Sequence record: OR786310.1
Length of the DNA stretch: 64,000 nucleotides
Reading direction: 5' to 3' (one strand)
Origin: Escherichia phage ETEC-TG
Part shown: positions 2,647-22,665 of the stretch, in pieces
How positions within the stretch are numbered: position 1 is the stretch's first letter
How the letters are laid out: every line of letters starts with the position of its first letter
Program-made: the position numbers and the translations under genes
Notes under the pieces: model-generated
Told to the model about the DNA's origin: nothing
Database searches by the model: none
Seen by the model: only the letters and a program-made list of their open reading frames with translations

Positions 2647-3119
2647 TGGCAGATTTAACTACGATCAAAATTTCTGATCTTACACAAACAACCTCTGTGT
2701 CTGATACAGATTTCTTTGTAACAGATCAGGCTGGAATAACAAAGAAAACTTCTTTGAAAGTGCTGTTGAGTGGTGCAGGGGTAACTAGAAACCGTCTGAA
2801 TGCACGGGGAACAGTAACTAGCACCTTGGCATTAGATATTAGTTCAGCAGAATATTTTTCTGCAACTTTATCTTCTGCAACGTGCACAATTAGTTTTACT
2901 AATATTCCAGTAGCAACAAATGCAGTTTTAAACTTTACTTTAGCTTTGCGTCAAGGAAGTGGTGCAAATAAAGTCGTATGGCCTTCTTCTGTAAAATGGA
3001 GTTTTGGTCGCCCCCCAGTTTTGAGTTATCGTCAAGGTGCAACAGACACTTTTGAGTTTATCAGTTATGATAATGGAGCAACTTGGACAGGTAGCTTAGT
3101 TTTAGCAGGAGTTATTTAA
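2646..3119 (+). CDS. Hypothetical structural protein
   Basis: 157 aa ORF with ATG/stop overlap in the structural operon; no recognisable motif. Confidence 0.45.
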   Translation: MADLTTIKISDLTQTTSVSDTDFFVTDQAGITKKTSLKVLLSGAGVTRNRLNARGTVTSTLALDISSAEYFSATLSSATCTISFTNIPVATNAVLNFTLALRQGSGANKVVWPSSVKWSFGRPPVLSYRQGATDTFEFISYDNGATWTGSLVLAGVI

Positions 3120-5995
3120 TGTCAAGAGTTAAGCACAATATTGACAACACGTTTCAGTTGATTGAAGGGTTGGTTCAGTTTTTGGAAAGAAATACTGGTC
3201 TTACCATAGATCCTACGGTTCAGCACTACATTATCAACCCACAAAACGTATTGGCGAACAACAGACACTTTATTAACTGGACAGCGCAGGAAGGGCAACC
3301 AAACGGTGACGCTACTACCGAAGGTCAATCTGTGCTTATCACTGGTTTTGCTTATGCATATTTGGCTACAGGAGATAAAAAATATCTTGAATCTGCCGAG
3401 AAGTATTGGCAAGCCTATATAGATCACTTCTTCGGGGGCCAACCTATTCCTGATCCTCCAGCTAAGTATCGTCCCAACTGGATCATCAATGGTAAAGAAC
3501 CACGTTTAGCACACTACCCTCTCACAGATGATGGGTATCCTACGCACGGTGGGTTCAAAGGTAGCATGATGACTTGGATTAACGGAAGGACTGTTATTCC
3601 TAAAGGTGCGCCACATTGGGGAGAATACTTAGATAAAGCTTGGTTTGCTTTCAATGGTAATCTTGGTTGGAACTCTGTTAACGCAACAGTGTATGCAACT
3701 AACCCAGATGGTTCAACCAACTGGAAAGAATATGGAGATCAGTGGGACGTTGAATGGATTATAGATCGTCTAGGACGTAAAGTTGATTGGGATGGTAACA
3801 TTTTATCCACTGGGCATAGCTTTGCAGAATATGGAACAGTGCAACTTAAAAACGCTTCTGTGAACGGAGACTATAAATTCAACTACGCTACATGCAATCC
3901 TGTAGAACACGGTGGATATCTGCTTAAGCGTAATGAGATGTGGCATAACCGTCCTGTAAACGTTCCGGTAGAGTTAGGTTATCAAGACAATGCTTCCGAT
4001 GCTGAAACGTGGTGGTGTGATGCAAACTACTTGATGTATCAGATCACAGGAGAGAGAAAATACTGGCTTTGCTGGCAATCTTCTTTATTGTTGTGTCAAG
4101 ACTACTCAAACATCGATATGTTTGATAAATTCTTCCGTAGATCTACGACAGCAATAATTCCTTTTACAGATGGTATCTCGTATGATTACTCATACCCATC
4201 TACAGCAATACCTAAATATTCTCGTGACGAGTTAGGATACACAGTAATTCGCCAAGATGTTGCAGCACAAACAACTCTAGAACAACAGGCAGTTTGGTTC
4301 AGAGTGGATCAGAATTCAAAACTGCGTATTGAGTTTCAAGGCGTAGATGATGCAGGGGAAGGTGTTCTTTTCCGTCCAGAGTTAGAATTAAGCAAGACTA
4401 AGAGTGAAACAGACACAGTGACATATCGTTGTGGCTTACCTCTTGGTGCAGCTAATATGACTAAGATGGATATACCTTTATCCAGTTTTATGCGCACTGA
4501 ACCTCCTGGAGGTGGTGTATATATTATTGCTGAACCTAGAATCATTGTTGACTGGGGAAGCAATACTGTGATACAATATAAATATGCAACTGGTATTGCT
4601 GGGACAAATAGTGATCAGATAGTTTCTGCTAATATGGATTCAGATGGTGGTTTTACTATTGGGTTTTGGTTAACACCAACTAAAACAACCAATTTAAAAT
4701 CTATTACGTATCGTTCATACGCAGATGATTTTAACATCACTATTACGGATTCCGCAGGTTGGAGATGGTGGGCCATGTTAGAAAAAACAAATTCTGCATG
4801 GGTTACTAAAGCTTTAAGTCCTGCTGATTTCAAATTAAGTACTTGGCAACCTAATCACAATGACACAGAGACAAAACCTTCGTCAATAAACCTGACTGCT
4901 GTTGATCAGATGAACATTGCATTGGATTCTGAACCTGCAAATGGCTTGACAGGGGCAATCGACTTTTATTGCGTTAACGATATCCCATCTTTGTATTCTT
5001 CAGCCGCTGGTGATGATTACACAATGTATTTCAGGGTTACAGTTTCATCTGAAAATCCTTATACAGCAAAACTTGGAGATTGTACAATACTGGACTACAA
5101 ACTTGACAGTTTGAATTATACTCCAGGAATCATCCCATTTTCCAATATTAGTGATCCTAATACAGCATTATATGACGGTTGGCGTGGTATTCCTTACCCA
5201 GGTTATCAATACCCATCCTTATATTGTTTTAAAGGGAGAGATATTGACTGGGTTCGTATGAACAACAGTATAGACTTTTTATATGATTCACAAATGTGGT
5301 TTTATAATAAGTTTGCCCCTGTAATGCCTGGGCCAATGGCACAAGCTTATGTTTGGGATCGTTGGGATGCTCATAAATATGGAAACAAAAATGAGTTCAC
5401 AATGTATCATTGGAACGATAAAGCTTGGGATGGTTATGAAGCAAGAGCATTCTTCTGTGCGTGTCATACGGTATACGAACTAAAGCGACGAGGAGCCGAA
5501 GTTCCTGAAAAACTTTTAACAGTTTGTAAAAACTGGATCAACTACCTGAAGTGGTTCCAAGATAACAACGAAGGAAGAACACCAACAATATTTTATCCCA
5601 ACGGAGAAGTGGCTGCGCCTGTAGATGACTTTACAAGTCACATGTCTGCGCTCTTTATGGCGGGATGTGCTATAATGGGGATGGCTGGATATGATTCAGA
5701 AATTCCTAACATTAGAATAGTAGCAGATCGCTGTTTTGAACTTATTCAGGAAAACTATATTGTTCTTGGTCCTAATCACGTCATGAATGGTTGTTGGAGT
5801 GCTGCTCCTAGACCAGACAGTGATAACGGAGTCTTCTTTGGCTTCCACGCTGGAGAGTTGTTACGTGGTTTTGGGTTGTATGCTTTATACAAAAAACTTA
5901 ATCCCCAAAATGCATTACCTGTTTTGGATTCGAGCAATATTCCTGCACTTACTGTTTTGACAATGGCAAACATTAGTGTGGACGTTACCGAGTAA
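3119..5995 (+). CDS. Large structural protein, putative tail fibre / receptor-binding protein
   Basis: 958 aa ORF in baseplate/fibre module; Trp/Tyr-rich composition; function inferred from context. Confidence 0.45.
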   Translation: MSRVKHNIDNTFQLIEGLVQFLERNTGLTIDPTVQHYIINPQNVLANNRHFINWTAQEGQPNGDATTEGQSVLITGFAYAYLATGDKKYLESAEKYWQAYIDHFFGGQPIPDPPAKYRPNWIINGKEPRLAHYPLTDDGYPTHGGFKGSMMTWINGRTVIPKGAPHWGEYLDKAWFAFNGNLGWNSVNATVYATNPDGSTNWKEYGDQWDVEWIIDRLGRKVDWDGNILSTGHSFAEYGTVQLKNASVNGDYKFNYATCNPVEHGGYLLKRNEMWHNRPVNVPVELGYQDNASDAETWWCDANYLMYQITGERKYWLCWQSSLLLCQDYSNIDMFDKFFRRSTTAIIPFTDGISYDYSYPSTAIPKYSRDELGYTVIRQDVAAQTTLEQQAVWFRVDQNSKLRIEFQGVDDAGEGVLFRPELELSKTKSETDTVTYRCGLPLGAANMTKMDIPLSSFMRTEPPGGGVYIIAEPRIIVDWGSNTVIQYKYATGIAGTNSDQIVSANMDSDGGFTIGFWLTPTKTTNLKSITYRSYADDFNITITDSAGWRWWAMLEKTNSAWVTKALSPADFKLSTWQPNHNDTETKPSSINLTAVDQMNIALDSEPANGLTGAIDFYCVNDIPSLYSSAAGDDYTMYFRVTVSSENPYTAKLGDCTILDYKLDSLNYTPGIIPFSNISDPNTALYDGWRGIPYPGYQYPSLYCFKGRDIDWVRMNNSIDFLYDSQMWFYNKFAPVMPGPMAQAYVWDRWDAHKYGNKNEFTMYHWNDKAWDGYEARAFFCACHTVYELKRRGAEVPEKLLTVCKNWINYLKWFQDNNEGRTPTIFYPNGEVAAPVDDFTSHMSALFMAGCAIMGMAGYDSEIPNIRIVADRCFELIQENYIVLGPNHVMNGCWSAAPRPDSDNGVFFGFHAGELLRGFGLYALYKKLNPQNALPVLDSSNIPALTVLTMANISVDVTE

Positions 5996-6003
5996 GGGGT
6001 AAA

Positions 6004-8157
6004 ATGAAACAAGCTATATTTACTGTCACGCGAGACAAGAGAGTAAATGCGAGTTCATTTAACTACACGACTGTTGACGGAACAGCAGTCGCTGGTAGAG
6101 ATTATATTGCAAAATCGGGAACACTTGTGTTCCCTGATGATGCTGATTCTGCTACTATTGTGGTTGAAGTATTTGAACGACCAAAGAACTCAATAGATCT
6201 TAACTTCTCCCTCCAAGTTTCAGGGATTAGTCAAAATAACATGATGGTTGAAACAACCATCAATTGTATTATAACTACTATCCAAGAAAATACTACTCCA
6301 ATAACTTGGACTACAAAAGACGTTAAAATGTTCTCTCCTATGTATTGGACAATAGATTCTCAAGCAACGGAAAGTTGTTCTATTGTATCTCATGGAGACT
6401 CTTTTACTGCAAGATTTGTAAACAGAACAACAGCAGGTTTGGCAGGGGTTATCTGGAGCACAGTTGACAAATATGACCATAAAGGTGTTGGGTATTTGCC
6501 TCACACAGATTTAAGTTCAGAGAAACTTTGGTTTAAAATGGAAATTAGTCAAAACATGCCAGGTTTTAAAGAAGAACCTTTGGTGCCGACTTTGACTGTA
6601 ACTCTCCTGGATAAAAGTGTTCATTATGTCAGTTTAGGATTCTACGCTTCAGATATTTCAGAAGATGGTAAAACAGCCACAATAAAGTTAGATTTTGGTA
6701 ATATCTTTTCTGGCCCTAATAATGATATTCCTTTGGATATGAGTGCTGTAGATAATATTTTCTTCTCTTTGATTACAGCAAGGTATGAAAAAATAGAAGA
6801 GGTTGTACCTATTGACAGTCAAGAGGCTTGGTTTACTTTCACTCTTCTTGAACCTACTTCTGGTTACAGTATGATGAAAGTCAGCAACCTTGTCCAGCCT
6901 GAACATGATATTCGCATGTGCACATCTTATGATGATATGTATAACCTGACTCCAGAGAGAGTTATTTATAATACATATGCACTAGGTTATCGTGGAATGA
7001 TTAACCATTACAACGGAATGTCTCACTATTATGAGTTCTCATGGAACGGAACATCTTGGGCTTTAAATAGATCTGTTTTCCTGAATCCGGCTACAGAAGC
7101 TTGGCTAAATAGTTTCCATTCTATAGCAAACGAGAAGGGCTACACGATAATGAACTCTTTAAGTTTTGAATTGATGAGCACAGTTTGTCCTGTAGAATGG
7201 GTCCAGCATGATTGGAACGATGCTCTTGCAGCAACAGGGTATGAACCTCCTAGTTATGTGTTGTCTCCAACTATTGACGAAGGTATGGAATATTTGCAAA
7301 ATGTTATTAACAAAATAGCATCTATTTCGCAAGCTAATAATATTCCAGTTGTCATTCAAATTGGTGAGCCTTGGTGGTGGTATAATACAGCAAGTAAAAT
7401 GCCTTGCATATATGATTACACTACCAAACTGGCATTCAACACAGAAACAGGCTTATTTGCACAAGATGCAGGAACAATAGATAATTATAAAACAGGAACA
7501 CCGTTTGACGAATACTATGCATTTTTGTCTCGTAAACTAGGGTTAAGAGTTACAAAGTTTGCAACAGACACTAGAGCAACTTATCCAGGAGCTAAAGTAA
7601 CATTGCTGCCATTCTTACCATCAATTATCGGCAATGGTTTAATGGAGAAAGTTAACTTTCCGTCTGATTACTACATTCCTGAAGCTTTTGATTTTTATTG
7701 TTCAGAGTGTTACGACTGGCTTCTGGAAGGTAAAATGATGAAAGCATTTGATGCAATTACCATACCACATGAAAAATTAGGTTTTGAATATTCTGATATT
7801 CACTATCTTGCAGGTTTTGTTCCAGATGCTACTCTTGCACCTTTGTATGGCTTTGATCCTGAATCAAACTACCGCACGTATCTTTGGAAAATGATTATAG
7901 GTAACATAGTGTTGAACGCCAATAAGTTCAATGGACTTACACAATATATATGGGCCTATCCTCAAATAATGCACGATTCTATCACGGTAGTTAATTCTCA
8001 ATCCCAAGTTTTCTATATGGGTAACGTGCCTTTGAACGCTTATTTACAGGATATCACTCTTAAACAGGTAAATGTTGAGATTGCCACCATAAGTGGAATT
8101 ACATTAGCCACTAAATCTGGAGAAGATTTAGTAACAACACAAAAATTTTATATATAG
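6004..8157 (+). CDS. Structural protein with N-terminal Calx-beta-like domain
   Basis: N-terminus FTVTRDKRVNASSFNYTTVDGTAVAGRDYIAKSGTLVFPDDADSATIVVEVFE matches the Calx-beta consensus (T.DGTA.AG.DY...G.L.F); 717 aa. Confidence 0.5.
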   Translation: MKQAIFTVTRDKRVNASSFNYTTVDGTAVAGRDYIAKSGTLVFPDDADSATIVVEVFERPKNSIDLNFSLQVSGISQNNMMVETTINCIITTIQENTTPITWTTKDVKMFSPMYWTIDSQATESCSIVSHGDSFTARFVNRTTAGLAGVIWSTVDKYDHKGVGYLPHTDLSSEKLWFKMEISQNMPGFKEEPLVPTLTVTLLDKSVHYVSLGFYASDISEDGKTATIKLDFGNIFSGPNNDIPLDMSAVDNIFFSLITARYEKIEEVVPIDSQEAWFTFTLLEPTSGYSMMKVSNLVQPEHDIRMCTSYDDMYNLTPERVIYNTYALGYRGMINHYNGMSHYYEFSWNGTSWALNRSVFLNPATEAWLNSFHSIANEKGYTIMNSLSFELMSTVCPVEWVQHDWNDALAATGYEPPSYVLSPTIDEGMEYLQNVINKIASISQANNIPVVIQIGEPWWWYNTASKMPCIYDYTTKLAFNTETGLFAQDAGTIDNYKTGTPFDEYYAFLSRKLGLRVTKFATDTRATYPGAKVTLLPFLPSIIGNGLMEKVNFPSDYYIPEAFDFYCSECYDWLLEGKMMKAFDAITIPHEKLGFEYSDIHYLAGFVPDATLAPLYGFDPESNYRTYLWKMIIGNIVLNANKFNGLTQYIWAYPQIMHDSITVVNSQSQVFYMGNVPLNAYLQDITLKQVNVEIATISGITLATKSGEDLVTTQKFYI

Positions 8158-8165
8158 GAGTAAAA

Positions 8166-10418
8166 ATGTCAACTACAATTACTAATTTACCCGAAACATC
8201 AAAAGTTAATGGTTCTGATTACCTGGTTTTAGACCAACCTGATAAGACTGTTAAAAGCACAGTTTCCAACTTTCTTACTGACACTGGGGTGGTTTTAGCC
8301 ACCCAGTTGAAAGATACAGATGGAGCTACCAAGTATCCAGAACTTCAGATTGCACGCTGGCGAGACGAGGGAGATATCAGAGGGTGGGGCACGGAAACAA
8401 ACGGTGATGTTACCGAAGCAATCATTGAGGCGGTAGCGGCGACAAGCGGCACTATCATTGTGCCACCTGGTGACTATGTTGCCACACCTACGCTGGCCGA
8501 AGTTCCGGCTGTGCTGAAATTGCTGTCCCGCGCTGATTTTCGTGGCAGGTTGACCATTAATCTGCCAGCTGGGACGGTCAATCTGAACGAGCAGACAGTC
8601 ATAAATTCTAACAGGAGTAATCTGTGCAAGGTCATTGGCGTAGCGCTAAACACGAGCGTTACAGGGCTTGTTTCTGTAGCTGGGTCAAGCAAGCAATATT
8701 CGATAACTCTGTCCCTGGCAGATGCCTCGCAGGTGTCAGTCGGTGACTATGCCATCTTCAGGCACGATCTGACGGGAACTGGTTTTTTCCACATACACTG
8801 CGGGGGCTGGCGGGTAACGGCTGTGTCCGGCAATAACGTGACCGTGCTCAACACATGCGTCTTGGATTCATTCCCTTCGTCAACCGTTACCGGTGGATCA
8901 GTCTCCATTATCAAGTCCGTTCTGAAATACACCGGCTGTGATGGGATTAGACCGGAGGGCGGCGACTGTATCGGAATTATTGATAATGTCGCCATCGTGG
9001 GTGATTACAACCTTGCTACCGGCGCAGGGACAATCGGTGCTCACGGCGTAATATCCTCAACACCCGTAGTAGTCACCGACGCCGCCAACGCATCCAACAA
9101 CGTAGCGAATATGGCGGCAGCGCTGGCCCTGGGACGAAATATTGCAATCAGTGCCTGGGGTGAGCAAGGGCTGGCAGTGTCGGGTCGCTCTGCGCTTGTG
9201 TGTAACTTCATCGCATCCTGTGCCAACCGTAAGCGTGGTATTTATGCGGAAGGTGCTCATATACGCGGGAAATTTATGATCGCCTCCGGAAACGGAGAGG
9301 ACGGCATTATTTCAGATACCACTGGATTTGTGCAGGCTGCATATGCCGTTTGCTCGGGTAACGGATTAAACGGGTTCTGGTCAACAAACCTCTCTCTTAT
9401 TGCGGCGGCAAGGGGAGTGGCTTGCTGTAACAAAACAAATGGTGTGGAGGCAAGGGGGCAGACAAGGCTCGCATTTGATCTCGGCCTTTCCTACGGAAAC
9501 GTTCTAAACGGTGTCAGCGCCTCTGATGGGGGCATGATTGACTTTGATGGCGGCATGTCAAGAGACAATCTCGTTGACGGGATCGCAGCGACATACAATG
9601 CAGTAGTTGACGCGAACAACGCCTCCAGTACCACCAATGGTCGTTACGGTACTAACGTGACCTCCGCGTGCATTATCATTTCAGGGACTGGTACTATATC
9701 TGGGAATACAGGGGCGGATGTTCGTGATAACGGCAATGGGATGGTTGTCCGACCAGACGGCACGATCTACCCATTCACTGGGGTCGCACAGGGTAATCTG
9801 TCGCTAAGAAACACCGTCAGCGGCGCGGGGGTTGACATTGTTCCTACAAGTATAGGTGACTTAATTCTGAGCTTTAAAAACTCAGCAGGCGGAACGCTTA
9901 ACCCGTTATACAACTTCAAAGCCGACGGTACTCAGTACCCTCAAAATGACGCGACGCAAAGCCTTGGGCGTGCCGCTAACCGATACAATGTCGGTTTCTT
10001 CGCTGGCGGAACACAGTCAACTTCAGATGCCACACTTAAAGACCCTATCCGGGAGTTCAATCAGGCCGAACTTAATGCAGCAATGCGAATCGCAAAAATG
10101 CTGGGTTTCTGGACATGGCTGGATGATGCCGGAAAACGGCTTCATGCAGGGACAACAGTGCAAGCGGTACTGGAGGTGCTGGAAGAAGAGGGACTCGACT
10201 GGCGTAACTATGGTTTCATCGGATTTGATGAGTGGGATGATGAATATATCCCAGTAACCATTGAGGTAGATGGCGAAGTCGTTGAAACAGGGGAAACGAA
10301 ATTAGTGCGTGAGGCTGGTTCTGTCTGGCAACTGCGCGATCAGGAATTTGACCGTTTCGTTATGCGTGGACTTTCTGAAAGGCTGAGTATTATAGAAAGT
10401 AAGCTGGATTTACTGTAA
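8166..10418 (+). CDS. Tailspike protein with beta-helix-like receptor-binding domain (GC-rich, mosaic)
   Basis: 750 aa; AT-rich conserved N-terminus followed by a markedly GC-richer body with Gly/Asn/Ser/Thr-rich repeats typical of pectate-lyase-type beta-helices. Confidence 0.55.
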   Translation: MSTTITNLPETSKVNGSDYLVLDQPDKTVKSTVSNFLTDTGVVLATQLKDTDGATKYPELQIARWRDEGDIRGWGTETNGDVTEAIIEAVAATSGTIIVPPGDYVATPTLAEVPAVLKLLSRADFRGRLTINLPAGTVNLNEQTVINSNRSNLCKVIGVALNTSVTGLVSVAGSSKQYSITLSLADASQVSVGDYAIFRHDLTGTGFFHIHCGGWRVTAVSGNNVTVLNTCVLDSFPSSTVTGGSVSIIKSVLKYTGCDGIRPEGGDCIGIIDNVAIVGDYNLATGAGTIGAHGVISSTPVVVTDAANASNNVANMAAALALGRNIAISAWGEQGLAVSGRSALVCNFIASCANRKRGIYAEGAHIRGKFMIASGNGEDGIISDTTGFVQAAYAVCSGNGLNGFWSTNLSLIAAARGVACCNKTNGVEARGQTRLAFDLGLSYGNVLNGVSASDGGMIDFDGGMSRDNLVDGIAATYNAVVDANNASSTTNGRYGTNVTSACIIISGTGTISGNTGADVRDNGNGMVVRPDGTIYPFTGVAQGNLSLRNTVSGAGVDIVPTSIGDLILSFKNSAGGTLNPLYNFKADGTQYPQNDATQSLGRAANRYNVGFFAGGTQSTSDATLKDPIREFNQAELNAAMRIAKMLGFWTWLDDAGKRLHAGTTVQAVLEVLEEEGLDWRNYGFIGFDEWDDEYIPVTIEVDGEVVETGETKLVREAGSVWQLRDQEFDRFVMRGLSERLSIIESKLDLL

Positions 10419-10484
10419 TTAAGAGCCGCTATCTCCTACTATGATGGCGGCAACCTTAAAATATTTACGTGGGGGAGCCACCTA

Positions 10485-10727
10485 ATGAGAAAATTTTTAA
10501 TAGGTATGTTTTGTACATATCCTGATAATAAAGTCAGTTCTACGAAAGTCTGGAACGCTGTAGGTATGTCGGTTATGACAGGCATGTTTATCTTTTTAGG
10601 AATAGAAAAAGAAATTCCTGAATGGATGGGTTGGGCTTTTGTTTTCATGATAACTCCTTCTCGCCTCATGAAAAATCTTATTGATTTACGCTGGGGCAGA
10701 TCACAATCTACCAAAGAGGATGACTAA
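10485..10727 (+). CDS. Small membrane protein (two predicted TM helices; holin-like)
   Basis: 80 aa, GGGGAG RBS, two hydrophobic stretches, charged C-terminus. Confidence 0.4.
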   Translation: MRKFLIGMFCTYPDNKVSSTKVWNAVGMSVMTGMFIFLGIEKEIPEWMGWAFVFMITPSRLMKNLIDLRWGRSQSTKEDD

Positions 10728-12214: not shown

Positions 12215-12216
12215 AA

Positions 12217-12846
12217 ATGGCAGTGAGTGTTGACCATGTAACAACTTGGGCCAGTATCAATGAAGATGTTAAAAACCTTCTGATTGAAGATTTTAAATCT
12301 TCTCCTAACATTGTCAAGCTCCTCTACATCGTATCCAGTGAAAAGCAAAAGATAGATCAGGCAATGATCTATCTTGCTAAACACCGCTTGATCTCTACAG
12401 CCACAGGCAAATACCTAGATATTCTAGGGGAAGAAATGGGGATCGAACGTAATGGCTCTGATGATGAAGAGTATAGAACAATATTAAAAATCAGGGCTTA
12501 CCGCGTAGCCTCATCGGGGACTCGTGGTGACATAATTGATATCTTCGCCCGTTTCACAGGAACAGAGCGTGAAACGCTTAATACTTACGTAGGTTTGAAT
12601 AAAACCTTTGATGTGTTTTTCTACAACCTGTGTCTTCAATCTGATCAAGCTTTAGAGCAGTTGCTAAGTGTTTTCCCTATTATTAGTAGCTACCGTCTTG
12701 GAGCAAAAGCAGGATCAGCTTTTGGTTTTAGTTCTTATTATGCTACCAAACCGCCTCATGGTATTGGTGGTTTAGGTTCCCTGTACATGGAATCTACTGG
12801 GGATGAAACAGGACGCATGTGTACGCTTCTCAAGCAAATAGATTAA
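12217..12846 (+). CDS. Baseplate/tail protein, gpI-like
   Basis: 209 aa ORF directly after J-like gene, as in P2-type baseplate operons. Confidence 0.4.
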   Translation: MAVSVDHVTTWASINEDVKNLLIEDFKSSPNIVKLLYIVSSEKQKIDQAMIYLAKHRLISTATGKYLDILGEEMGIERNGSDDEEYRTILKIRAYRVASSGTRGDIIDIFARFTGTERETLNTYVGLNKTFDVFFYNLCLQSDQALEQLLSVFPIISSYRLGAKAGSAFGFSSYYATKPPHGIGGLGSLYMESTGDETGRMCTLLKQID

Positions 12847-12855
12847 GGAGTTTAA

Positions 12856-13917: not shown

Positions 13918-14463
13918 ATGATATTTACAAACTTTAAAAAATATATTCCTGAAGACCCTGAACTAAAAGAATTGGTAGAAGCAGAGAACATTCTTTTTCT
14001 TCGTTGCGATCAAGGTTACGATTGGTATGATTTACGTAGCACAGAATTCAATAACGATAAAATGAAAGTCGTTTTTGATGATCAAAATCGTATTGTGTTT
14101 TGGAATACTGATCCTACACTACTTTGCCCTGAAGATCTTTCTATAGCACAAGTAGATTTTAATATAGATACTTTTGAGGATATTAGGAACAAGGTTCTGG
14201 ATTTAGAAACCTTAACTCTTAAGGATAAAGAGTATTCCCGTGAAGAGTTGATGACACAAGCTAGTGCAAAAATTCGCTCTTTACAAGAAACAGCGGTAGC
14301 ACTTATAACACCTTTACAGTATGCTAAAGATTTAGAAATGGCTACTGAAGACGAATTAGCTTATCTTAAAAATCTTCAAGTTTATGTAGTTAAACTAAAT
14401 CGTGTTCCGCTTCAAAAAGACTATCCTTACGCTATAGATTGGCCTACATTACCGACAGAATAA
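13918..14463 (+). CDS. Tail fibre assembly chaperone (Caudo_TAP-like)
   Basis: 181 aa; C-terminal DYPYAIDWPTLP resembles the tail-fibre assembly protein family C-terminus; located after a fibre gene. Confidence 0.55.
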   Translation: MIFTNFKKYIPEDPELKELVEAENILFLRCDQGYDWYDLRSTEFNNDKMKVVFDDQNRIVFWNTDPTLLCPEDLSIAQVDFNIDTFEDIRNKVLDLETLTLKDKEYSREELMTQASAKIRSLQETAVALITPLQYAKDLEMATEDELAYLKNLQVYVVKLNRVPLQKDYPYAIDWPTLPTE

Positions 14464-14472
14464 GGGATCACT

Positions 14473-14808
14473 ATGGAATTTCAAGAAGCATGGGGACTTG
14501 CAAAGGATGCAATAATCCCTTTAATCGGAGTCATCTGGTTCTTTTTCAAACAAAAAATGGATAAATTCGGCTCTGATCTTGAGGAAATGGAGGAGAAAAG
14601 TCGAGAGCTAGAGAAGAAGTTGGTCTTTGTTGAATCAACTTACGCAACTAAAGCCGAACTTACCCAGATGCTAAATCAAATTAACTCTACATTAATGGCA
14701 AATAACAACACCCTTGAGCAAAAAATTGAAAAGATTATGGACCTCAAGAATGCGACTATCCAAATGATGCTAGATGACATAGTTAAACGTACACAGAATA
14801 AGGGGTAA
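14473..14808 (+). CDS. Small membrane-anchored coiled-coil protein
   Basis: 111 aa; N-terminal hydrophobic helix (IIPLIGVIWFFF) followed by charged coiled-coil. Confidence 0.4.
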   Translation: MEFQEAWGLAKDAIIPLIGVIWFFFKQKMDKFGSDLEEMEEKSRELEKKLVFVESTYATKAELTQMLNQINSTLMANNNTLEQKIEKIMDLKNATIQMMLDDIVKRTQNKG

Positions 14809-14811
14809 TTA

Positions 14812-17800
14812 ATGGCAACATTCCCAACATATCCAGCAACGTCTCTCGAACAGGGCGTAGACCTGGTTATTTTCTCATCTAACCAACTCCATGATGTTAT
14901 TAATGGAAGTGCTACAGAGAGTATTGAAACAGAATCAGGGTTGATACCAACCCTGAGAAAAGCCCTTGTTGACAACTTTTTCTTTAAAAGCCCATTGGAT
15001 TGGGCGCAAGGCACAAACGAAACAGTTTTTAACCAACTTCGTTATTTCCAGAATGGAGTATTGAGCGGTTATTACTATGCTCCTAACGCTACATTGGTTA
15101 ACCCAATCCCTATGCAAGGGACTCCAGTAGGAGATAACAACTGGGTATTGTGGGGACTGAAAACAGAACAATTAGCAACAGAAGTCACCCCGTGGGTATA
15201 CTCTGGTGCAACTGGTTATGAAACAGTAATTAGTCCTCCTTACATCTTTGATAGTGCTATTGTTACGATCAATGGTGTTATTCAGGTTCTGGGGGAAGCT
15301 TTCCGTATAGAAGACAGTAAGATCATCTTATCTGAACCTTTGGGACACGATCCTGCAACAGGACTGCCAAACAAGCTTTTTGCTTATATTGGTAAAATCG
15401 TAGCTTCAGCAGATACAGATCCTAATCTAGAGAACCGTCTTGTTAGTTTAGAAACAAAAACGGAAGAACTAACAGAAAGCATGGATAAAGTCCCTCTGCA
15501 AGCTATTGCTCGTAAGTATGGTTTGTTAGATGATGAGGTGGCTTACGCAACAGCAGGTCAATCGTTAACAGGGATTAAAGCTCTGTATGATCCGGTAGCA
15601 CAGTCTTCCTACACATTACCTCCTAACATCACAGGAACTTTAACATCCTTATCTGTTTCTGGAGTAATGACTTATTCTGGAGGATCTGTAGACCTTTCTG
15701 CACTGGCTGTTGAGCGTGGACAGTTTGTTCATTTGCCTACAAGCTTTGGTAATAACGTAACTCTGACAGCTAAAAATCAGACGATTGGACGTGGTGCTGG
15801 TCGTTATCGTTGGGCTGGAAGTTTACCAAAAAGTATTTTGGCCTCTGATACATTGGAGACAAGCGGAGGATTAGGTCCAAATGCATGGGTTCTGACTAAT
15901 ACAGAAGGACTGTTAACCCCTCGTGGTGGAACATACAACGATCTATTCGATGTTGTCTACTTGTCAGAATTTGCTAACAATACAACTACCTATACCACAC
16001 CAGAAGCAGCTTTCCAGGCGGCACTGTTAGCAGCAAAAGCTTCGAAAAGCAAGATTCTCGATGCTTACGGTTGCGACATGACTTTCACGACAAGCTCTTT
16101 TGATATTCAAGATATCACTTTGCGTGGTGGTGTGTTCCGTGGTCAACGCGACTATCGTGTGCAGAATGCTACAGTAGAAGGCACAACTTTCCGTAACTCT
16201 CGTGTTATGTATTGGGGTGGTGCTGTGCGCATGTTCGATTGTTTGTGGGACGGTGCTCCTCGCGCAGGTCAAGTTGGTAGCTTGGTATTCCAAGGCAACC
16301 CAATATCAGGTACTTTTGAAATTGATAATTGTACTTTTAAAAACGGGTTATATGGCATTCTTCAACAAGGAACAGGGGAACCAGTAACACGCGGTGTCTT
16401 CCGTAACCTTACCTTCATGGACATGCAAGGTGATGCAATAGAACTGAACGTCATCAATAAACATTATGACGATGGTTGTGTGATTGAGAATATTTACCTG
16501 TCTAATATCGATGGGACTAACGCTCCTATTCCTCTGTCCAACTGGGGTATCGGTATCGGTGTAGCTGGTAAAGGACCATATGGTTACGGAATCCCTGATG
16601 ATCAATATTGTAAGAACATTACAATTCGTAACGTTTTTGCAAAACGTTGTCGTCAGATTGTCCACGTAGAAGTTGGTCGTAATATCTCTATCGAAAACAT
16701 TCATGGCGATCCAGATCAAACCGTATCTGTTGGGACAGGTTTGGCAACTGGCGCAGTTGTAATGTATGGAAGTAAAGACTTTACGATTGATGGTGTTTAT
16801 GGAGAGCCTAAAACAGACGGTAGCACACTTGCAAGTAATATCCGTATGATTTACTTGGAGTGGGGAACTAACGCAGTTCTGGATGAAGAGGGTAATCCGG
16901 TAGTTCCGGCACAAGGCAGACCTTCAAACCCATGCTTTAACTATTCTGTTCGTAACATTCACACCAAAACTGGGCGTGTTTTTGCGGGAGTTTCCGCTGG
17001 GCCAGGTTATGAAAACAGAGTTAGCTTTGAAAATATTCGTTGCGCTGCCTTGCAGTTGTTCGGTATAGCTTCTTGGCTTTCAATGTCTAACATCACCTGT
17101 AATATCTTCGATTGTGTTGGTCAACCTGAATCTGGTCCAGGGACATTTTATGATGGATTCTTCCGTAGAGAAAAATCTGTTCTTGAAATGGTTAACGTAA
17201 ACTGTTACCCAGATGGCAAGACGATGGTTACTGGTCGTCCACAGTGGAGCCGTTGCCGTTACTCGGATATTCATCGTGTCAACTGTAATGTTGAAGCTAA
17301 TATGTATACCAATATCGCAGGTGGTATTGGAGCTATTGTAGGGACAACGGGCAAAGTTTATTACTTAGAGCCTAATCCTAGTCGAAACATTGATGGAATG
17401 CATTTCCCAACAGGGAAAGAGTTTGACAAAGGGGATATGATAGTCAAGGCGGATAATACGTTCTTCCTTGTAACAACAAGTGGGGCATATATTCCAGATA
17501 TCCCAGCTTTCGGTATTCGAGCTACACAGGCAGGAGATACCTTCCTGACACAGAACTTGACTCCTAACGGGACAGCAACAAATGCTTCTTGGTTGTATCA
17601 TTACCCTCTGTCAGCAGGGACACGTATCCGTATTCCTGGCGCTGGTGTAGGTGGAGCAGATTTGGACACAGTTATTACTCGTGCACCTTATCAAGATAAT
17701 GATACGTGGACTAACCCAGTTAAAATAGACATTGCAGATCCAATTGTAACGCCTACAAGTGCTGGAGTTAGAATTAAAACCATACCTAATGATTCCAGTA

Positions 17801-17865
17801 ATGTTTCTGTAGGTAATACTGCGGTTATTCGCCCAACGCCAGTAGTAGATGTGCCAACAACCTAA
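14812..17865 (+). CDS. Tailspike protein (second, beta-helix-type; putative depolymerase)
   Basis: 1017 aa; elevated GC; repetitive Gly/Asn-rich body; many overlapping antisense ORFs typical of GC-rich insert. Confidence 0.5.
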   Translation: MATFPTYPATSLEQGVDLVIFSSNQLHDVINGSATESIETESGLIPTLRKALVDNFFFKSPLDWAQGTNETVFNQLRYFQNGVLSGYYYAPNATLVNPIPMQGTPVGDNNWVLWGLKTEQLATEVTPWVYSGATGYETVISPPYIFDSAIVTINGVIQVLGEAFRIEDSKIILSEPLGHDPATGLPNKLFAYIGKIVASADTDPNLENRLVSLETKTEELTESMDKVPLQAIARKYGLLDDEVAYATAGQSLTGIKALYDPVAQSSYTLPPNITGTLTSLSVSGVMTYSGGSVDLSALAVERGQFVHLPTSFGNNVTLTAKNQTIGRGAGRYRWAGSLPKSILASDTLETSGGLGPNAWVLTNTEGLLTPRGGTYNDLFDVVYLSEFANNTTTYTTPEAAFQAALLAAKASKSKILDAYGCDMTFTTSSFDIQDITLRGGVFRGQRDYRVQNATVEGTTFRNSRVMYWGGAVRMFDCLWDGAPRAGQVGSLVFQGNPISGTFEIDNCTFKNGLYGILQQGTGEPVTRGVFRNLTFMDMQGDAIELNVINKHYDDGCVIENIYLSNIDGTNAPIPLSNWGIGIGVAGKGPYGYGIPDDQYCKNITIRNVFAKRCRQIVHVEVGRNISIENIHGDPDQTVSVGTGLATGAVVMYGSKDFTIDGVYGEPKTDGSTLASNIRMIYLEWGTNAVLDEEGNPVVPAQGRPSNPCFNYSVRNIHTKTGRVFAGVSAGPGYENRVSFENIRCAALQLFGIASWLSMSNITCNIFDCVGQPESGPGTFYDGFFRREKSVLEMVNVNCYPDGKTMVTGRPQWSRCRYSDIHRVNCNVEANMYTNIAGGIGAIVGTTGKVYYLEPNPSRNIDGMHFPTGKEFDKGDMIVKADNTFFLVTTSGAYIPDIPAFGIRATQAGDTFLTQNLTPNGTATNASWLYHYPLSAGTRIRIPGAGVGGADLDTVITRAPYQDNDTWTNPVKIDIADPIVTPTSAGVRIKTIPNDSSNVSVGNTAVIRPTPVVDVPTT

Positions 17866-17871
17866 TGGAAT

Positions 17872-17890
17872 AGAGGGGGATTCCCCCTCT
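17872..17890 (+). terminator. Stem-loop AGAGGGGGA-TT-CCCCCTCT after tailspike gene
   Basis: Perfect 8-bp G/C-rich inverted repeat 7 nt after stop; weak T-tract. Confidence 0.4.
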
Positions 17891-17926
17891 TCTTCCAATA
17901 GAATGGTCTAATGATAGGAGAGATAA

Positions 17927-19951
17927 ATGAATTTAACAAGACCTAATAGTGCGATAGCCGATCTGGTAGAAGCTACTTATCGAAAACGTCGCAGCTTTGA
18001 GGCAGGTTTTACATTACGTAATTCCCGTGAAGTTTTGCTGTTAGCAGCAGAAGGGAATTATTACCAATGGAAAGGAACTTTTCCTAAAGTTGTTCCAGCA
18101 AACTCTACGCCAGCCACCACAGGTGGTATTTCTTCCCTTGCATGGCAAAGTGTTGGGACTGCTGATGATATAGCAATTATCAATGCCAAGTTTACGGCAA
18201 TGCAGCAACAGATTGATGATCTGTCGGAAACAATACCTGAAGCTGGTAAATCGGCTTATCAGATCGCACTTGATAATGGTTTTGTTGGAACAGAAGCACA
18301 ATGGCTTGCTTCTTTGAAAGGGGATACTGGTGCTCAACTTAATATTAAAGGATCATTAGCAAACACTAGTGAACTACCATCCACAGGTAACGTTGCAGGG
18401 GATGGTTATATCGTAGGTGATGTAATCTACGCTTGGGATGGTTCTGTTTGGAAACTTATTTCTTCTCTTGGGCCAGAAGGTAAATCAGCTTACGAGGTAT
18501 GGTTGGCAGATGGTAATACAGGATCTGTTTATGATTTTCTTACCTCTATAAAAGGTGATAAAGGTGATGTTGGTCCTACAGGGCCACAGGGAGCACCTGG
18601 TGTTAACGCCAACGGTTTTGATTATCGTGGGGATTTGCCTTCTACAAGTAACTTACCACAACCAAACTCTGAAAACGTAAGTCAAGCTTATTCTATCAAT
18701 GGTAATCTTTATGTCTCTAATGGGACAGCTTGGGTCAACATGGGTAATATTGTTGGTCCTCAAGGTCCACAAGGTGAGGCAGGTAAAGACGGTCTTGATG
18801 GAACAGATGGAGATGAAGGGAAATCTGCATATCAAAGTTGGCTGGATGCTGGTAATGAAGGGACAGAAGTAGATTTTATTGCCTCACTTAAAGGTCCAAA
18901 AGGAGACAAAGGTGATCAAGGAGAGCGAGGTCCACAAGGTGAACTAGGTCCACAAGGACCAGTGGGTGCAACAGGATCAGGCTTAGATATTATCGGGGTT
19001 CTGAACAGTGAAGCTGAACTTCCTCCTACCGGAGAAGTAGGTGATGCATATAAAATTAATAATGATTTATATGTTTGGGTTCAAGATGCTACGGAATGGA
19101 TGAATGTTGGCAGTCTTGGAGGAACATCAATTACAGCTAAAGGTCATGTTCCGAACAGTGAAGCTCTCCCTGTTTATAATAACTATGGCGATGCCTACTT
19201 AACTGAAGACACTAGTAATCTTTACATCTATACCTACGATCAAGACACCAATTCCGCATCTTTTGTTGACATGGGAAGTATTAAAGGCGACAAAGGTGAA
19301 AAAGGGGATAAAGGAGATAAGGGTGATCCTGGAACAAACGGAACCAACGGTACTGATGGGACCAACGGTAAGGACGGCGCACAGTGGTTTGTAGCAACAA
19401 CTAATCCAGTTGCAGGAGACGGTGTTATCAATGATTACGCCTTCAATACTACCACTGGAGCAGTGTTTAAGAAAACAGATTCTTCTACGTGGACGCTTAT
19501 AGGCACTCTTCCTAGTATACCAGAAGCCCCTCAAGACGGCTTGACGTATGGTCGGTCTGATGGAAACTGGATCGAAATATCAGGATCAGATCCTACGGAA
19601 GCTATAACACCAACTAGAGTTACAGCAGGTTTCATGGAACTTGAAACAACTGCTGCCAACTCTGGAGCATCTTGGACTCCTTCTGGAACTTCCAATATGT
19701 ATGTTGTTACAGTAACTGATGCTCTGACAGTTGGAGCATGGCCTGGTGTCACTGGCTCTACAAAACCTAAAGCGTTTTCAGCAATGATTTATTTGATTCA
19801 AGATACAACGGGACACACGGTTACACTAGATGCGTCTTATGGAGCACTAAATGATACAGAAATAGCAACTGCTGCTAACGCAGTAACAATTTTGCAATTA
19901 ACGTATCCTGGTGTGGGTGATATCGTGGACATGGTTGTTGTAACACGATAA
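17927..19951 (+). CDS. Tail fibre protein with collagen-like G-X-Y repeats
   Basis: 674 aa; several G-X-Y runs (GPQGPQGEAGKDGLDGTDGDEG; GDKGEKGDKGDKGDPGTNGTNGTDGTNGKDG) alternating with two recurring sequence modules. Confidence 0.6.
   Translation: MNLTRPNSAIADLVEATYRKRRSFEAGFTLRNSREVLLLAAEGNYYQWKGTFPKVVPANSTPATTGGISSLAWQSVGTADDIAIINAKFTAMQQQIDDLSETIPEAGKSAYQIALDNGFVGTEAQWLASLKGDTGAQLNIKGSLANTSELPSTGNVAGDGYIVGDVIYAWDGSVWKLISSLGPEGKSAYEVWLADGNTGSVYDFLTSIKGDKGDVGPTGPQGAPGVNANGFDYRGDLPSTSNLPQPNSENVSQAYSINGNLYVSNGTAWVNMGNIVGPQGPQGEAGKDGLDGTDGDEGKSAYQSWLDAGNEGTEVDFIASLKGPKGDKGDQGERGPQGELGPQGPVGATGSGLDIIGVLNSEAELPPTGEVGDAYKINNDLYVWVQDATEWMNVGSLGGTSITAKGHVPNSEALPVYNNYGDAYLTEDTSNLYIYTYDQDTNSASFVDMGSIKGDKGEKGDKGDKGDPGTNGTNGTDGTNGKDGAQWFVATTNPVAGDGVINDYAFNTTTGAVFKKTDSSTWTLIGTLPSIPEAPQDGLTYGRSDGNWIEISGSDPTEAITPTRVTAGFMELETTAANSGASWTPSGTSNMYVVTVTDALTVGAWPGVTGSTKPKAFSAMIYLIQDTTGHTVTLDASYGALNDTEIATAANAVTILQLTYPGVGDIVDMVVVTR
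19285..19378 (+). repeat. Triplet-periodic GGN-NNN-NNN coding repeat (collagen-like tract)
   Basis: ggcgacaaaggtgaaaaaggggataaaggagataagggtgatcctggaacaaacggaaccaacggt... Confidence 0.6.
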
Positions 19952-19955
19952 CAGA

Positions 19956-19979
19956 AGCCCCGAAAGGGGCTTTCTTTTT
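19956..19979 (+). terminator. Rho-independent terminator (GCCCC-GAAA-GGGGC + T-tract)
   Basis: Hairpin with GAAA tetraloop followed by TTTCTTTTT directly after stop of fibre gene. Confidence 0.7.
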
Positions 19980-19992: not shown

Positions 19993-22665
19993 ATGTTTCC
20001 AATTCCAATATTTACTATTATGACCAGCACTGGTGTCGTTCCTCTGCCAGCGGGTATTGTTAAAAAAGTAATCACTTTAGATTACCCAGATAATGCTGGT
20101 AATTCTAACAGCAGTTTAGCAATTTTGCTTAATGATGGTAGATTGTTTACTCAAGGCGCAAACCTTTTTGGTGAGATTGCAGATGGAACTCGTAGTGCAC
20201 GATTCAATAATTTCCACTTAGCTTCTACTGTAGTAGCGGATGTGTTTACCGCAGATCGTTGTTTTGTTATTAAAACTAACAGCGGGGGATGGCAATATTC
20301 AGGATTGACAGCAGGGTTGGTAGGATCTATAGCAGCAGGTGGTACGGATGCATGTGTAACTACTTGGACCAGCTTTCCATCTGTAATAACAGGGACTATC
20401 TCTTTAGCCAATCTTAAAGAGGTTAAAGGAGGGTATAACAATACTCTTTGGTTAATGAATAGCGGTGTTCTTTATGGATCGGGTCAAAACACAGTAGGCA
20501 GTTTAGGTGCAAGCACTACTAACGAAGTTTCTACTCCCCGTCAGATAACAAGTTCAGCAGTTGCTTTTGATGCAGGTTATAACCAATGCTCTTATGTCAA
20601 CAATGCGGGAACCTTGCGTGTTTGTGGAGCTAGTAAAGGTTTAGCAGGTAATAATAACACAACAACCGCTTTTGTCAATGCCACGATATCCACTACTGAA
20701 ACAGTGTATGTCAAAGATTACATCAATACAGTTTCCCAGACAATAGTTGTAGGAGATACCTCCGGTGGCGCGGGTACAGTAAACTACTTATATGTTAGAT
20801 CTAATACAGAAACAACCTACACTAAACTGGACACCTTTGCAGCAGGTTTCTCAACATGGAAATTTCCACCAAGCCGCCACTCTTTTTTCGTTGGGATCAA
20901 TAATTCCTTGTGGGCTATTGGTAAGAACTACACTGCAAACTTAGGTTTGGGATATGATTCTGCGAGCGGAGATCCACTCCAAGTGGGAAAACCAGTTAAA
21001 CCTGAAGGAGTGGGTTCCTGGGATATAAACAAGCTCACAAGCGTTCATACGTTGAATATGGATATTACTAACCAATTAGGTTATCAAGGAACCTTTTTCG
21101 TTTATAACGGGGATATGTATTATTCCGGTATTTGGAAAGATGGGAAAGCCTCGTATCTGTTCAATAGTGGTCTAAACTATAATAAATTCACACCAATAGC
21201 AAGCTCCGTGATTACGGGGGATGTTCTGGCAACTGGCTTAACTACAGATTCTTTAGGAATTTGTATTGTAGGTGGAACTAAACAGTTGACACATTCTGTT
21301 AGCCCGGAAGGAGGTAAACTTTTCAATATTAAATACACTTCTTCTGTCCCTGCAAACATGACAATATCATCTACTGGTTTAATGACTTTCCATGCAGAAG
21401 GTGGTTTTGATGCAGGTATGACAGCCTTAAACGCTGAAGGAACAACTTTATCAGATACCTCTGGAGGATATGCTTCAACATTGAGTGTTTACACCCCTAG
21501 CTTATCTGCGATGGATGTAGGAACAACACAAACAATGGTAGCAGAAATAACGCCAACAGGAGCAGCAAGCTTACCTGGTATGGTTGTTGAGTATACAACT
21601 ACAGATCCTAATGTTGCTACAGTAGATCCTACAACTGGTGTAATAACTGGTGTTGGTGATGGTGGTTGTAGAATTGGTTGCACAGCTACATATCAAGGTG
21701 TTGTTACCGCTTCTGATAGTTCTTATTTAACGGTGAACGCTGTTGCGGGAAAGGAGTTAGCTCCATCTCCGAGTAGTAGTTTAACGGTTCTAAACGGATA
21801 TTTCAACCACTCGGCAGATGGGGCAATTACGTTCCCAATTTTATCGGGTACTGTCACACCAGCTAACTTTGTAGTTAAGGTGGATGACGTTGTAATACCT
21901 TCAAATAAAGTAATATTTAGAAATAAAGCTTTCTCTACAGTGGATAGTTATCCAGCAGGAGAATATAGACTGGCTATTGAATTTGCAAGTGCTTCAGTAG
22001 TGAATAGTGTTGATGTGTCTATGGAAGCAAATCCAGATCTTTTAGAATTATGGGGCGGCAACAGAATTGGTTATTCTACAAGCCCAGCCTCACAATTCTT
22101 AAAAGGTTGTGCTAACTTAAGACGAATAACTTCTGATTGTTTTAGTAACACATCTTACACCGGAACATCTATAAGTGGTATCTTCTCTGGCTGTACAAGT
22201 TTGACAGCTATCCCTGAAGGATTATTCAGTGATGCTTTATTTCCTTCAATGACAACAATGTCAAGCACGTTTGAAGGTTGTACATCTTTAACATCTATTC
22301 CTTCAGATTTATTTAAAAATCTATCAAAAGTTACAAGATATTCTTACACCTTTAAAGATTGCACCTCTCTTGCAGAAGTTCCAGCAGGAATGTTTGATAA
22401 TATTCCAACGAAAGTGACCTCTTTAACAGCTACATTCCAAGGTTGTTTAGCACTTACAGATTTTAATAAAATCTTTAATGACAACCCAGGGTTAACTGTT
22501 TGTGGTAAACGTGGAGCATTATCTTCTTTCTTTAGTGGATGCACAAATCTTACAGGAACAGGAACAACATTAACAAATACATTAGGCGGAGTAGCTAATA
22601 GTTACCTATTCAGGTATTGCACAAAACTTTCTGATTATAACAATATTCCTTCGGGTTATAAATAA
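19993..22665 (+). CDS. Receptor-binding/tail fibre protein with Big_2-like Ig domain and C-terminal BspA-type leucine-rich repeats
   Basis: 890 aa; Ig-like segment (VATVDPTTGVITGVGDGGCRIGCTATYQGVVTASDSSYLTVNA); C-terminal repeats FSGCTSLTAIPEGLF / FEGCTSLTSIPSDLF / FKDCTSLAEVPAGMF / FQGCLALTDF / FSGCTNLTG. Confidence 0.55.
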   Translation: MFPIPIFTIMTSTGVVPLPAGIVKKVITLDYPDNAGNSNSSLAILLNDGRLFTQGANLFGEIADGTRSARFNNFHLASTVVADVFTADRCFVIKTNSGGWQYSGLTAGLVGSIAAGGTDACVTTWTSFPSVITGTISLANLKEVKGGYNNTLWLMNSGVLYGSGQNTVGSLGASTTNEVSTPRQITSSAVAFDAGYNQCSYVNNAGTLRVCGASKGLAGNNNTTTAFVNATISTTETVYVKDYINTVSQTIVVGDTSGGAGTVNYLYVRSNTETTYTKLDTFAAGFSTWKFPPSRHSFFVGINNSLWAIGKNYTANLGLGYDSASGDPLQVGKPVKPEGVGSWDINKLTSVHTLNMDITNQLGYQGTFFVYNGDMYYSGIWKDGKASYLFNSGLNYNKFTPIASSVITGDVLATGLTTDSLGICIVGGTKQLTHSVSPEGGKLFNIKYTSSVPANMTISSTGLMTFHAEGGFDAGMTALNAEGTTLSDTSGGYASTLSVYTPSLSAMDVGTTQTMVAEITPTGAASLPGMVVEYTTTDPNVATVDPTTGVITGVGDGGCRIGCTATYQGVVTASDSSYLTVNAVAGKELAPSPSSSLTVLNGYFNHSADGAITFPILSGTVTPANFVVKVDDVVIPSNKVIFRNKAFSTVDSYPAGEYRLAIEFASASVVNSVDVSMEANPDLLELWGGNRIGYSTSPASQFLKGCANLRRITSDCFSNTSYTGTSISGIFSGCTSLTAIPEGLFSDALFPSMTTMSSTFEGCTSLTSIPSDLFKNLSKVTRYSYTFKDCTSLAEVPAGMFDNIPTKVTSLTATFQGCLALTDFNKIFNDNPGLTVCGKRGALSSFFSGCTNLTGTGTTLTNTLGGVANSYLFRYCTKLSDYNNIPSGYK

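Follow-up and report, generated by a model that had tools for sequence, protein, structure and literature searches.

We analysed the structural module of Escherichia phage ETEC-TG (OR786310.1) in a 64-kb stretch of its DNA, here called the window; all coordinates are those of the window, and proteins are named by the start position of their genes. Six large plus-strand open reading frames (ORFs) lie here together with a smaller plus-strand pair that encodes a fibre and its chaperone. None of these is a chance ORF, because strong homologues were found for all of them. A first-pass annotation, made from the sequence alone, had called the six large genes fibres or tailspikes of a multivalent adsorption apparatus; the starts and sizes it gave are exact, with products of 674-1017 amino acids (aa). 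The adsorption genes stand head-to-tail with baseplate genes in one plus-strand block that runs up to a hairpin at 22668-22689. Very probably, a Phapecoctavirus encodes its baseplate and host adsorption here, in a module that is orthologous gene by gene to gp137-gp151 of phage phi92 and puts several host-interaction proteins on one wedge. The genes in question are the following:

3119-5995, plus strand: 958-aa tail protein with an (alpha/alpha)6 barrel, homologue of phi92 gp141 and rV5 gp42 ('TfpL')
6004-8157, plus strand: 717-aa protein with Calx-beta, NCTSP_N and TIM-barrel domains, homologue of phi92 gp142, rV5 gp34 and N4 gp64
8166-10418, plus strand: 750-aa tailspike in the slot of the phi92 endosialidase gp143 (AF2, Foldseek and Pfam S74)
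12856-13917, plus strand: 353-aa short tail fibre, Mu GpS-like, counterpart of phi92 gp147 or 'fibre III' (phrog_4465; PDB 9cuy_c, short tail fiber, E=5e-23)
13918-14463, plus strand: 181-aa tail-fibre assembly chaperone of the Mu GpU / lambda Tfa type (phrog_136, E=7e-42; Caudo_TAP, E=3e-13)
14812-17865, plus strand: 1017-aa predicted colanic-acid-degrading tailspike, homologue of phi92 gp150 (PDB 6e0v, E=1.1e-78, aa 426-1000)
17927-19951, plus strand: 674-aa collagen-like tail fibre, homologue of phi92 gp151 at 60% identity ('TfpM2')
19993-22665, plus strand: 890-aa protein with an RCC1 propeller, two Big_2 Ig domains and a variable C-terminal domain ('TfpM1'; Pfam RCC1/WD40_RLD; Big_2, E=4e-8)

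In the phi92 record, gp137 is the hub, gp138 the spike, gp143 an endosialidase with a cleaved C-terminal chaperone, gp145 and gp146 the wedge, gp147 a fibre, gp148 a chaperone and gp150 a colanidase. Comparing every protein of the window from 274 to 19951 with the phi92 locus by tblastn, we found the order gp137-gp151 kept at 60-87% identity with four exceptions, namely the body of 8166, the tip of 12856, the chaperone 13918 (no phi92 match at E<=1e-5) and the catalytic part of 14812 (33%). According to cryo-electron microscopy (cryo-EM) of phi92, gp145 bears three sets of fibres and is the docking site for fibres I and III; gp143 is assigned to fibre I and gp147 to fibre III (PMC13450770). 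The baseplate genes and the small genes that accompany the adsorption genes in ETEC-TG are:

274-1284, plus strand: baseplate hub, phi92 gp137 homologue (83% identity; Pfam E217_GP41, E=1.5e-9)
1284-2018, plus strand: central membrane-piercing spike, phi92 gp138 homologue (73% identity; Pfam N-terminal domain, E=8e-11, and beta-helical trimerisation domain, E=8.5e-32, of the phi92 spike family)
2020-2646, plus strand: sheath initiator, phi92 gp139 homologue (about 72-73% identity; role taken from cryo-EM, PMC13450770)
2646-3119, plus strand: small fibre-like protein of 157 aa, phi92 gp140 homologue, 'TfpS3' (83% identity; phrog_9017, tail fiber)
10485-10727, plus strand: small membrane protein, phi92 gp144 homologue (about 80% identity)
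10727-12214, plus strand: baseplate wedge subunit, phi92 gp145 homologue (80% identity; Pfam Baseplate_J)
12217-12846, plus strand: second wedge subunit, phi92 gp146 homologue (87% identity; Pfam DUF2612)
14473-14808, plus strand: small lipoprotein-like protein, phi92 gp149 homologue (76% identity; phrog_15210)

The tailspike 8166 is built from a genus-conserved N-terminal anchor (about aa 1-80), a beta-helix (about aa 95-530), a stem resembling that of T5 pb1 and a Peptidase_S74 chaperone that begins at S620. In the AF2 model of the monomer (pLDDT 83.8), aa 1-65 are disordered, the beta-helix is right-handed with regular short strands, and past aa 530 a stem is followed by a helical C-terminal domain. 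Foldseek searches with this model returned LKA1 gp49, AP22 gp54, CBA120 TSP2/3, the HK620 TSP and a K1 lyase, all with probability 1.00. The C-terminus of T5 pb1 with its intramolecular chaperone (PDB 4uw8) was matched at E=2.4e-25 and was also recovered by Foldseek. The beta-helix feature named in the first-pass annotation is thus present in 8166, and likewise in 14812 by its match to 6e0v. Pfam PF13884 (Peptidase_S74) matches 8166 at E=1.3e-8, the first position of the profile falling on residue 620, and S620, D621 and K625 (Ser-x4-Lys dyad) are at least 90% conserved across 40 homologues. Because the S74 domain starts at 620 and these three residues are near-invariant, the chaperone is predicted to cleave itself off at S620.

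Examination of relatives reveals that the receptor-binding body of this spike is an exchanged cassette. Homology to 8166 covers only aa 1-54 in most Phapecoctavirus genomes, and the ESCO5/phAPEC8/phi92 group has aa 1-99 in common with it plus a distant match in the chaperone. The DNA identity of relatives picks up again exactly at 10485, the start codon of the gp144-like gene, which marks the 3' border of the cassette. The closest full-length alleles (536_P1, VEcB and alia) are 70% identical, their ends being near-identical and the beta-helix body (aa 120-600) diverged. Other alleles in the genus include an endosialidase in ESCO5 and phAPEC8 and Tail_spike_N-type spikes of 450-800 aa elsewhere. 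An E. coli prophage tailspike (P0001) is 93% identical to aa 81-748 of 8166 and, unlike 8166, has a Tail_spike_N anchor; in its siphovirus-type prophage, its gene is directly preceded by one that is GpJ-like, and cadC/cadB-like genes lie next to it. Furthermore, the body is 59% identical to that of E. coli prophage tailspikes with a P22-type head-binding domain (PF09008) and 64% identical to Sashavirus 536P12. The GC content of the 8166 gene is 0.508 and that of its third codon positions (GC3) 0.497, against about 0.39 and about 0.29 in the neighbouring genes; this host-like composition is consistent with import from a temperate phage. The junctions follow the textbook pattern of exchange between anchor and receptor-binding domain, by which the 8166 allele would have come from the tailspike of an E. 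coli temperate phage.

Two further observations touch this slot. The N-terminal ~38 aa of the 157-aa protein 2646 resemble the N-terminus of 8166 (2646-2780 and 8166-8300; local alignment z=7.2 versus shuffles), with the common motif I-[ST]-x-L-x-x-T-x-x-V-x(3)-D-x-x-V-x-D-Q-x(3)-T-x-K, and the two proteins may plug into the same type of socket. A relationship between 2646 and 17927, suggested by the structural comparison in the phi92 paper, was not detected by BLASTP. In several relatives an ORF of ~102 aa labelled 'tail spike' stands between the slot gene and the gp144-like gene (L002, 10770-11078; L005, 11004-11312; L006, 10371-10679; L007, 10807-11112). It is absent at 10419-10484 of the window, and from ESCO5 and phi92. 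The L002 copy resembles aa 230-302 of the colanidase at 45% identity and looks like the remnant of an earlier Tail_spike_N-type cassette. In GenBank the exact product of 8166 (WPK30732.1, ETECTG_CDS0217) is labelled 'hypothetical protein', though it is clearly a tailspike.

The short fibre 12856 is 76% identical to phi92 gp147 over aa 1-267 and differs from it in the tip. A chaperone had been assigned to this smaller fibre at the outset, and 13918 carries the Caudo_TAP and phrog_136 signatures that agree with it. Fibre tip and chaperone co-vary: both are replaced in tuntematon (L006, 13047-14633), where 78% of the fibre's length finds a match and identity in the chaperone is down to 29%. The tip together with its chaperone is a third, linked variable spot of the module. 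In phi92, rearrangement of gp147 triggers contraction (PMC13450770).

The large tailspike 14812 begins with a segment (aa 1-215) that is 75% identical to phi92 gp150, followed by a segment (aa 226-399) similar to the N-terminal domains of CBA120 TSP1/3/4 (E=1e-26 to 1e-30). The protein also matches Pfam Tail_spike_N (PF18668) at E=2.4e-9 and phrog_6117 at E=1.7e-282, and 60 deposited phages carry it at 99% identity or more. By homology, its product would be a colanic-acid depolymerase. Downstream, 17927 carries Tail_spike_N at aa 12-77 (PF18668, E=1.3e-19), a Pfam Collagen match (E=4e-12) and four Gly-X-Y runs of 6-11 triplets, so that the collagen feature read from the sequence earlier holds for this protein. 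Its C-terminal domain is found in rV5 gp28 as well.

The pair 3119 and 6004 is of a different kind. No Pfam match to 3119 was found at E<=0.01 and no PDB entry matched its sequence. Its fold is a complete six-hairpin (alpha/alpha)6 barrel, glycosidase-like, with beta-sandwich inserts that resemble carbohydrate-binding modules (CBMs). Identity to structural neighbours is 8-14%, and many acidic and aromatic residues are invariant; homologues at 43-55% identity occur in phages of unrelated hosts. The protein is not a fibre, and none of the features that the first-pass annotation listed for the large genes is present in it. Nor are they in 6004, which instead carries Calx-beta (E=8e-11), NCTSP_N (E=3.2e-16) and a TIM barrel (TIM-barrel_NCTSP, E=4.4e-79). 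6004 is 77% identical to phi92 gp142 and 44% to rV5 gp34, and matches N4 gp64 (PDB 9lc0_M) at E=3e-30; a match to N4 gp65 is confined to aa 270-344. In N4, gp64 and gp65 form the receptor-binding 'non-contractile sheath', and gp64 is a component of the virion tail. The label 'non-contractile tail sheath' that 6004 homologues bear in relatives was propagated from N4 and is a misnomer, as a phi92-related phage has a contractile tail. Fibre or tailspike, the class proposed for all six large genes, therefore holds for 8166, 14812 and 17927 and fails for 3119 and 6004, which have enzyme-like globular folds; 19993 is a candidate for it.

A 1557-aa protein of another phage (P0229) joins the two families in one chain: its aa 1-960 resemble 3119 at 44% identity and its aa 968-1543 resemble aa 108-680 of 6004 at 52%, the Calx-beta N-terminus of 6004 being left out. 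This fusion suggests that the 3119 and 6004 proteins work as one physical unit. N4, Vequintavirinae and phi92-like phages need wecB and nfrB (the NGR glycan), and homologous tail proteins of the glycan-deacetylase type are common to them. Vequintavirinae and phi92-like phages depend on the lipopolysaccharide (LPS) core as well (BASEL, PMC8594841). In the 2026 cryo-EM study of phi92, the candidates screened against unassigned density were all fibre-shaped (gp15, gp140, gp150 and gp151) and none fitted, and gp141 and gp142 were never considered (PMC13450770). We tentatively propose, with more doubt than confidence, that the 3119/6004 unit accounts for unassigned density at the periphery of the phi92-type baseplate, either that of 'fibre II' or that of the L-shaped fibre I in its proximal arm, and acts enzymatically on a conserved glycan such as NGR.

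The last large protein of the block, 19993, matches phi92 only over aa 411-584, to gp152, and its aa 1-195 resemble the N-terminus of rV5 gp27. Its Big_2 domains agree with the Ig feature that had been noted. The leucine-rich repeats noted along with it find no support, since LRR_5 at the C-terminus stays below threshold (E=0.0065, 16.8 bits versus a cut-off of 27.7). Within the genus, conservation extends over the N-terminal 584 aa, whereas the C-terminal ~300 aa (aa 585-890) are allelic, about half of the relatives matching only aa 1-584. A conserved N-terminus with an allelic tip is the pattern typical of receptor-binding proteins, and 19993, a putative virion component, probably makes contact with the host too, through its variable tip. 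The whole gene is absent from phi92-like phages (Justusliebigvirus).

Across the first 24 kb, the DNA is 97-99% identical over 87-94% of its length to more than 60 deposited phages, all Phapecoctavirus (Stephanstirmvirinae) and among them phAPEC8, ESCO5, 536_P1, dw-ec and tuntematon. Nearly all proteins of the module are 98-100% identical within the genus. Variation is found mainly in 8166, and also in the tip of 19993 and in the short-fibre tip with its chaperone. Over evolutionary time, host range would have changed mainly as one 8166 cassette replaced another, with a smaller contribution from the 19993 and short-fibre tips.

Around the block, two terminator-like hairpins were located:

19954-19973, plus strand: terminator-like hairpin between the 17927 and 19993 genes (consensus match only)
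22668-22689, both strands: bidirectional terminator-like hairpin between the end of the structural module and convergent minus-strand genes

GC skew changes sign at the second of these. Minus-strand genes occupy the window from 22.7 kb to ~58 kb, and the strand switches back near 58-60 kb according to GC skew. A promoter scan returned 49 sites versus 50.1 expected from shuffled controls, thus no excess. No tRNA genes were found in the 64 kb and relatives are reported with 10-11, so the tRNA cluster must lie outside this stretch.

Orthology, folds, mosaic junctions and conservation are results of the analysis itself. Reading virion positions, ligands and enzymatic activities from the data on phi92, N4, CBA120 and the BASEL phages, we infer the following course of adsorption. 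The wedge formed by 10727 and 12217 would carry several fibre sets at once. The trimeric tailspike 8166 would dock by its N-terminal anchor, fold with its self-cleaving S74 chaperone and bind or degrade a strain-specific O- or K-polysaccharide. The depolymerase 14812 would clear the colanic-acid slime layer, the collagen-like fibre 17927 would be a further adsorption protein of the set, and 3119 and 6004 would act jointly on a conserved glycan, probably NGR as in N4. Between them, the two spikes and the 3119/6004 pair would bind O-antigen or capsule, colanic acid and the conserved glycan and cut a way through these layers. With its variable tip, 19993 would probably make another host contact. 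The Mu-type short fibre 12856, made with its chaperone 13918, would then reach the LPS core and trigger contraction of the sheath.

Virion data from relatives bear on this model from both sides. Mass spectrometry of rV5 virions lists gp42, the homologue of 3119, together with gp43, gp30/33 and gp36. Several points weigh against the model. The rV5 data set is thin, with 19 proteins in all, and gp27 is represented in it by 3 weak, mostly non-tryptic peptides; the 'Comparative genomics and proteomics' paper on O177 phages includes no mass spectrometry. The phi92 cryo-EM study could fit none of gp150, gp151 and gp140 into fibre II and did not consider gp141 and gp142 (PMC13450770), and because of this, co-display of all the proteins is putative. 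For ETEC-TG itself, the virion composition is predicted by analogy with phi92. Between 14812 and phi92 gp150, identity in the catalytic domain is as low as 33%, and the enzymatic activity of 3119 and 6004 is a prediction from sequence and fold. Moreover, five of the six large genes are almost invariant, and on a given host the apparatus may be 'effectively monovalent'.

The last point leads to a reading in which only 12856 and 8166 set the hosts, and the remaining large products serve as structural scaffolds or as accessory enzymes against exopolysaccharide, with no gain in host range. It is quite possible, if not what we expect. One ground for it is conservation: outside 8166 and the 19993 C-terminus, the large genes show 98-100% identity throughout the genus, and 3119 at 43-55% identity in phages of unrelated hosts is atypical for a specificity determinant. 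The BASEL study states that such phages 'would be effectively monovalent on E. coli K-12' (PMC8594841), and K1-negative strains support growth of ESCO5, which encodes an endosialidase, and also of ESCO13, which does not. Resistance to 536_P1, whose host is O6:K15, arises by LPS mutation (77% in LPS genes) or by over-production of capsule. The enzyme-like folds and CBM-like domains of the conserved proteins, however, point to contact with glycans and not to pure scaffolding. Judging from the genetics of relatives, the terminal receptor would be the LPS core, and passage through capsule or exopolysaccharide would be the main task of the other proteins. The multivalent adsorption that was first proposed for ETEC-TG keeps its footing in the homology to characterised systems and in the published model for the group; the breadth proposed with it has to be reduced below 'one host class per protein', because the module is mostly invariant and the LPS core is the likely terminal receptor.

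A different objection removes 19993, and perhaps 3119 and 6004 with it, from the baseplate and its fibres and makes them decorations of the head or tail tube, or enzymes outside the virion that are released at lysis. The Big_2 part of 19993 resembles phi92 gp152 ('lambda protein V like fold') and major tail/decoration PHROGs, a terminator-like hairpin separates the gene from the fibre gene upstream, Justusliebigvirus does without it, and the phi92 cryo-EM study makes no mention of gp141 or gp142 (PMC13450770). Nevertheless, we consider this unlikely: 19993 joins a conserved N-terminus to ~300 allelic C-terminal aa, as receptor-binding proteins classically do, rV5 gp42 is among the virion proteins found by mass spectrometry, and 3119 and 6004 sit between spike and wedge genes, the N4 homologue of 6004 being a component of the virion tail. 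Far less probable still is programmed switching of receptor-binding proteins, by inversion as in the Mu G segment or by a diversity-generating retroelement, to which we give almost no credence. A Mu S/U-like fibre and chaperone pair is indeed present, but it is the only one, with no second inverted copy, and no direct or inverted repeats of at least 24 nt occur in 2500-23000. No lysogeny genes, integrases or specific recombinases are reported in the near-identical ESCO5 and ESCO13 genomes. The 'switchable' host range of the first-pass annotation is thus not a programmed switch and can only mean recombinational exchange of cassettes.

We therefore retain the reading of the locus as a baseplate and adsorption module with several host-interaction proteins on one wedge. 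Conceptually it adds nothing new, as the multi-fibre reading dates from 2012, and 'tail fiber' proteins of 958, 890, 681, 353, 235 and 157 aa were listed for Stephanstirmvirinae in a 2025 paper. Three points are mildly new: that the gp141 family has an (alpha/alpha)6-barrel fold, that a fusion links it to the gp142/N4-gp64 family, and that the pair is a candidate for unassigned density; fold and fusion together make this a concrete and testable candidate for what the latest phi92 structure left unassigned. The specificity of the genus is localised, which is of practical value for the engineering of phages for therapy, and siphovirus prophages and a lytic myovirus are seen to be able to exchange a receptor-binding body.

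The 'multivalent adsorption apparatus' of phi92, a term coined for that phage, was reportedly described by Schwarzer et al. in 2012 (J Virol), as papers citing that work relate. ETEC-TG agrees with phi92 in gene order, including the interleaved wedge genes, in a tailspike slot with an anchor of ~99 aa and an S74 chaperone, and in the colanidase. It differs in having a beta-helix tailspike where phi92 has an endosialidase, in a colanidase that is 213 aa longer with an added pair of CBA120-type TSP N-terminal domains, in the short-fibre tip and chaperone, and in the 890-aa RCC1/Ig protein that stands where phi92 has the 202-aa gp152 and the 295-aa gp153. The same loci in Vequintavirinae, Phapecoctavirus and phi92-like phages have been called a 'nanosized Swiss army knife' (BASEL, PMC8594841). 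With other Phapecoctavirus, ETEC-TG has all module proteins but one in common at 98-100% identity; it is set apart by its 8166 allele and lacks the ~102-aa tailspike remnant that several relatives carry.

Ackermannviridae (CBA120, Kuttervirus) likewise bear several depolymerase tailspikes on one myovirus baseplate, and homologues of their Tail_spike_N/TSP N-terminal domains stand at aa 226-399 in 14812 and at aa 12-77 in 17927. Their TSP1-4 genes form a tandem array, whereas those of ETEC-TG are interleaved with baseplate genes and joined by enzyme-like proteins that are not spikes. No clear XD branching platform of the TSP2/TSP4 type was seen, the sole TSP2 match being weak (6w4q, E=1e-7, aa 215-315 of 14812). 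The resemblance to N4 gp64/gp65 lies in the NCTSP_N and TIM-barrel domains of 6004, in its short gp65-like segment and in the dependence of both phage groups on the NGR pathway. The partner of gp64 is the ten-domain gp65, while that of 6004 is the (alpha/alpha)6-barrel protein 3119, and phi92-type phages have a contractile tail. Finally, tailspikes of the P22/HK620/Sf6 type and of prophages have the same receptor-binding body as 8166 (59-93% identity to aa 81-748) on P22-type or Tail_spike_N anchors, whereas in ETEC-TG this type of body is mounted by a Stephanstirmvirinae-specific anchor on the baseplate of a myovirus.

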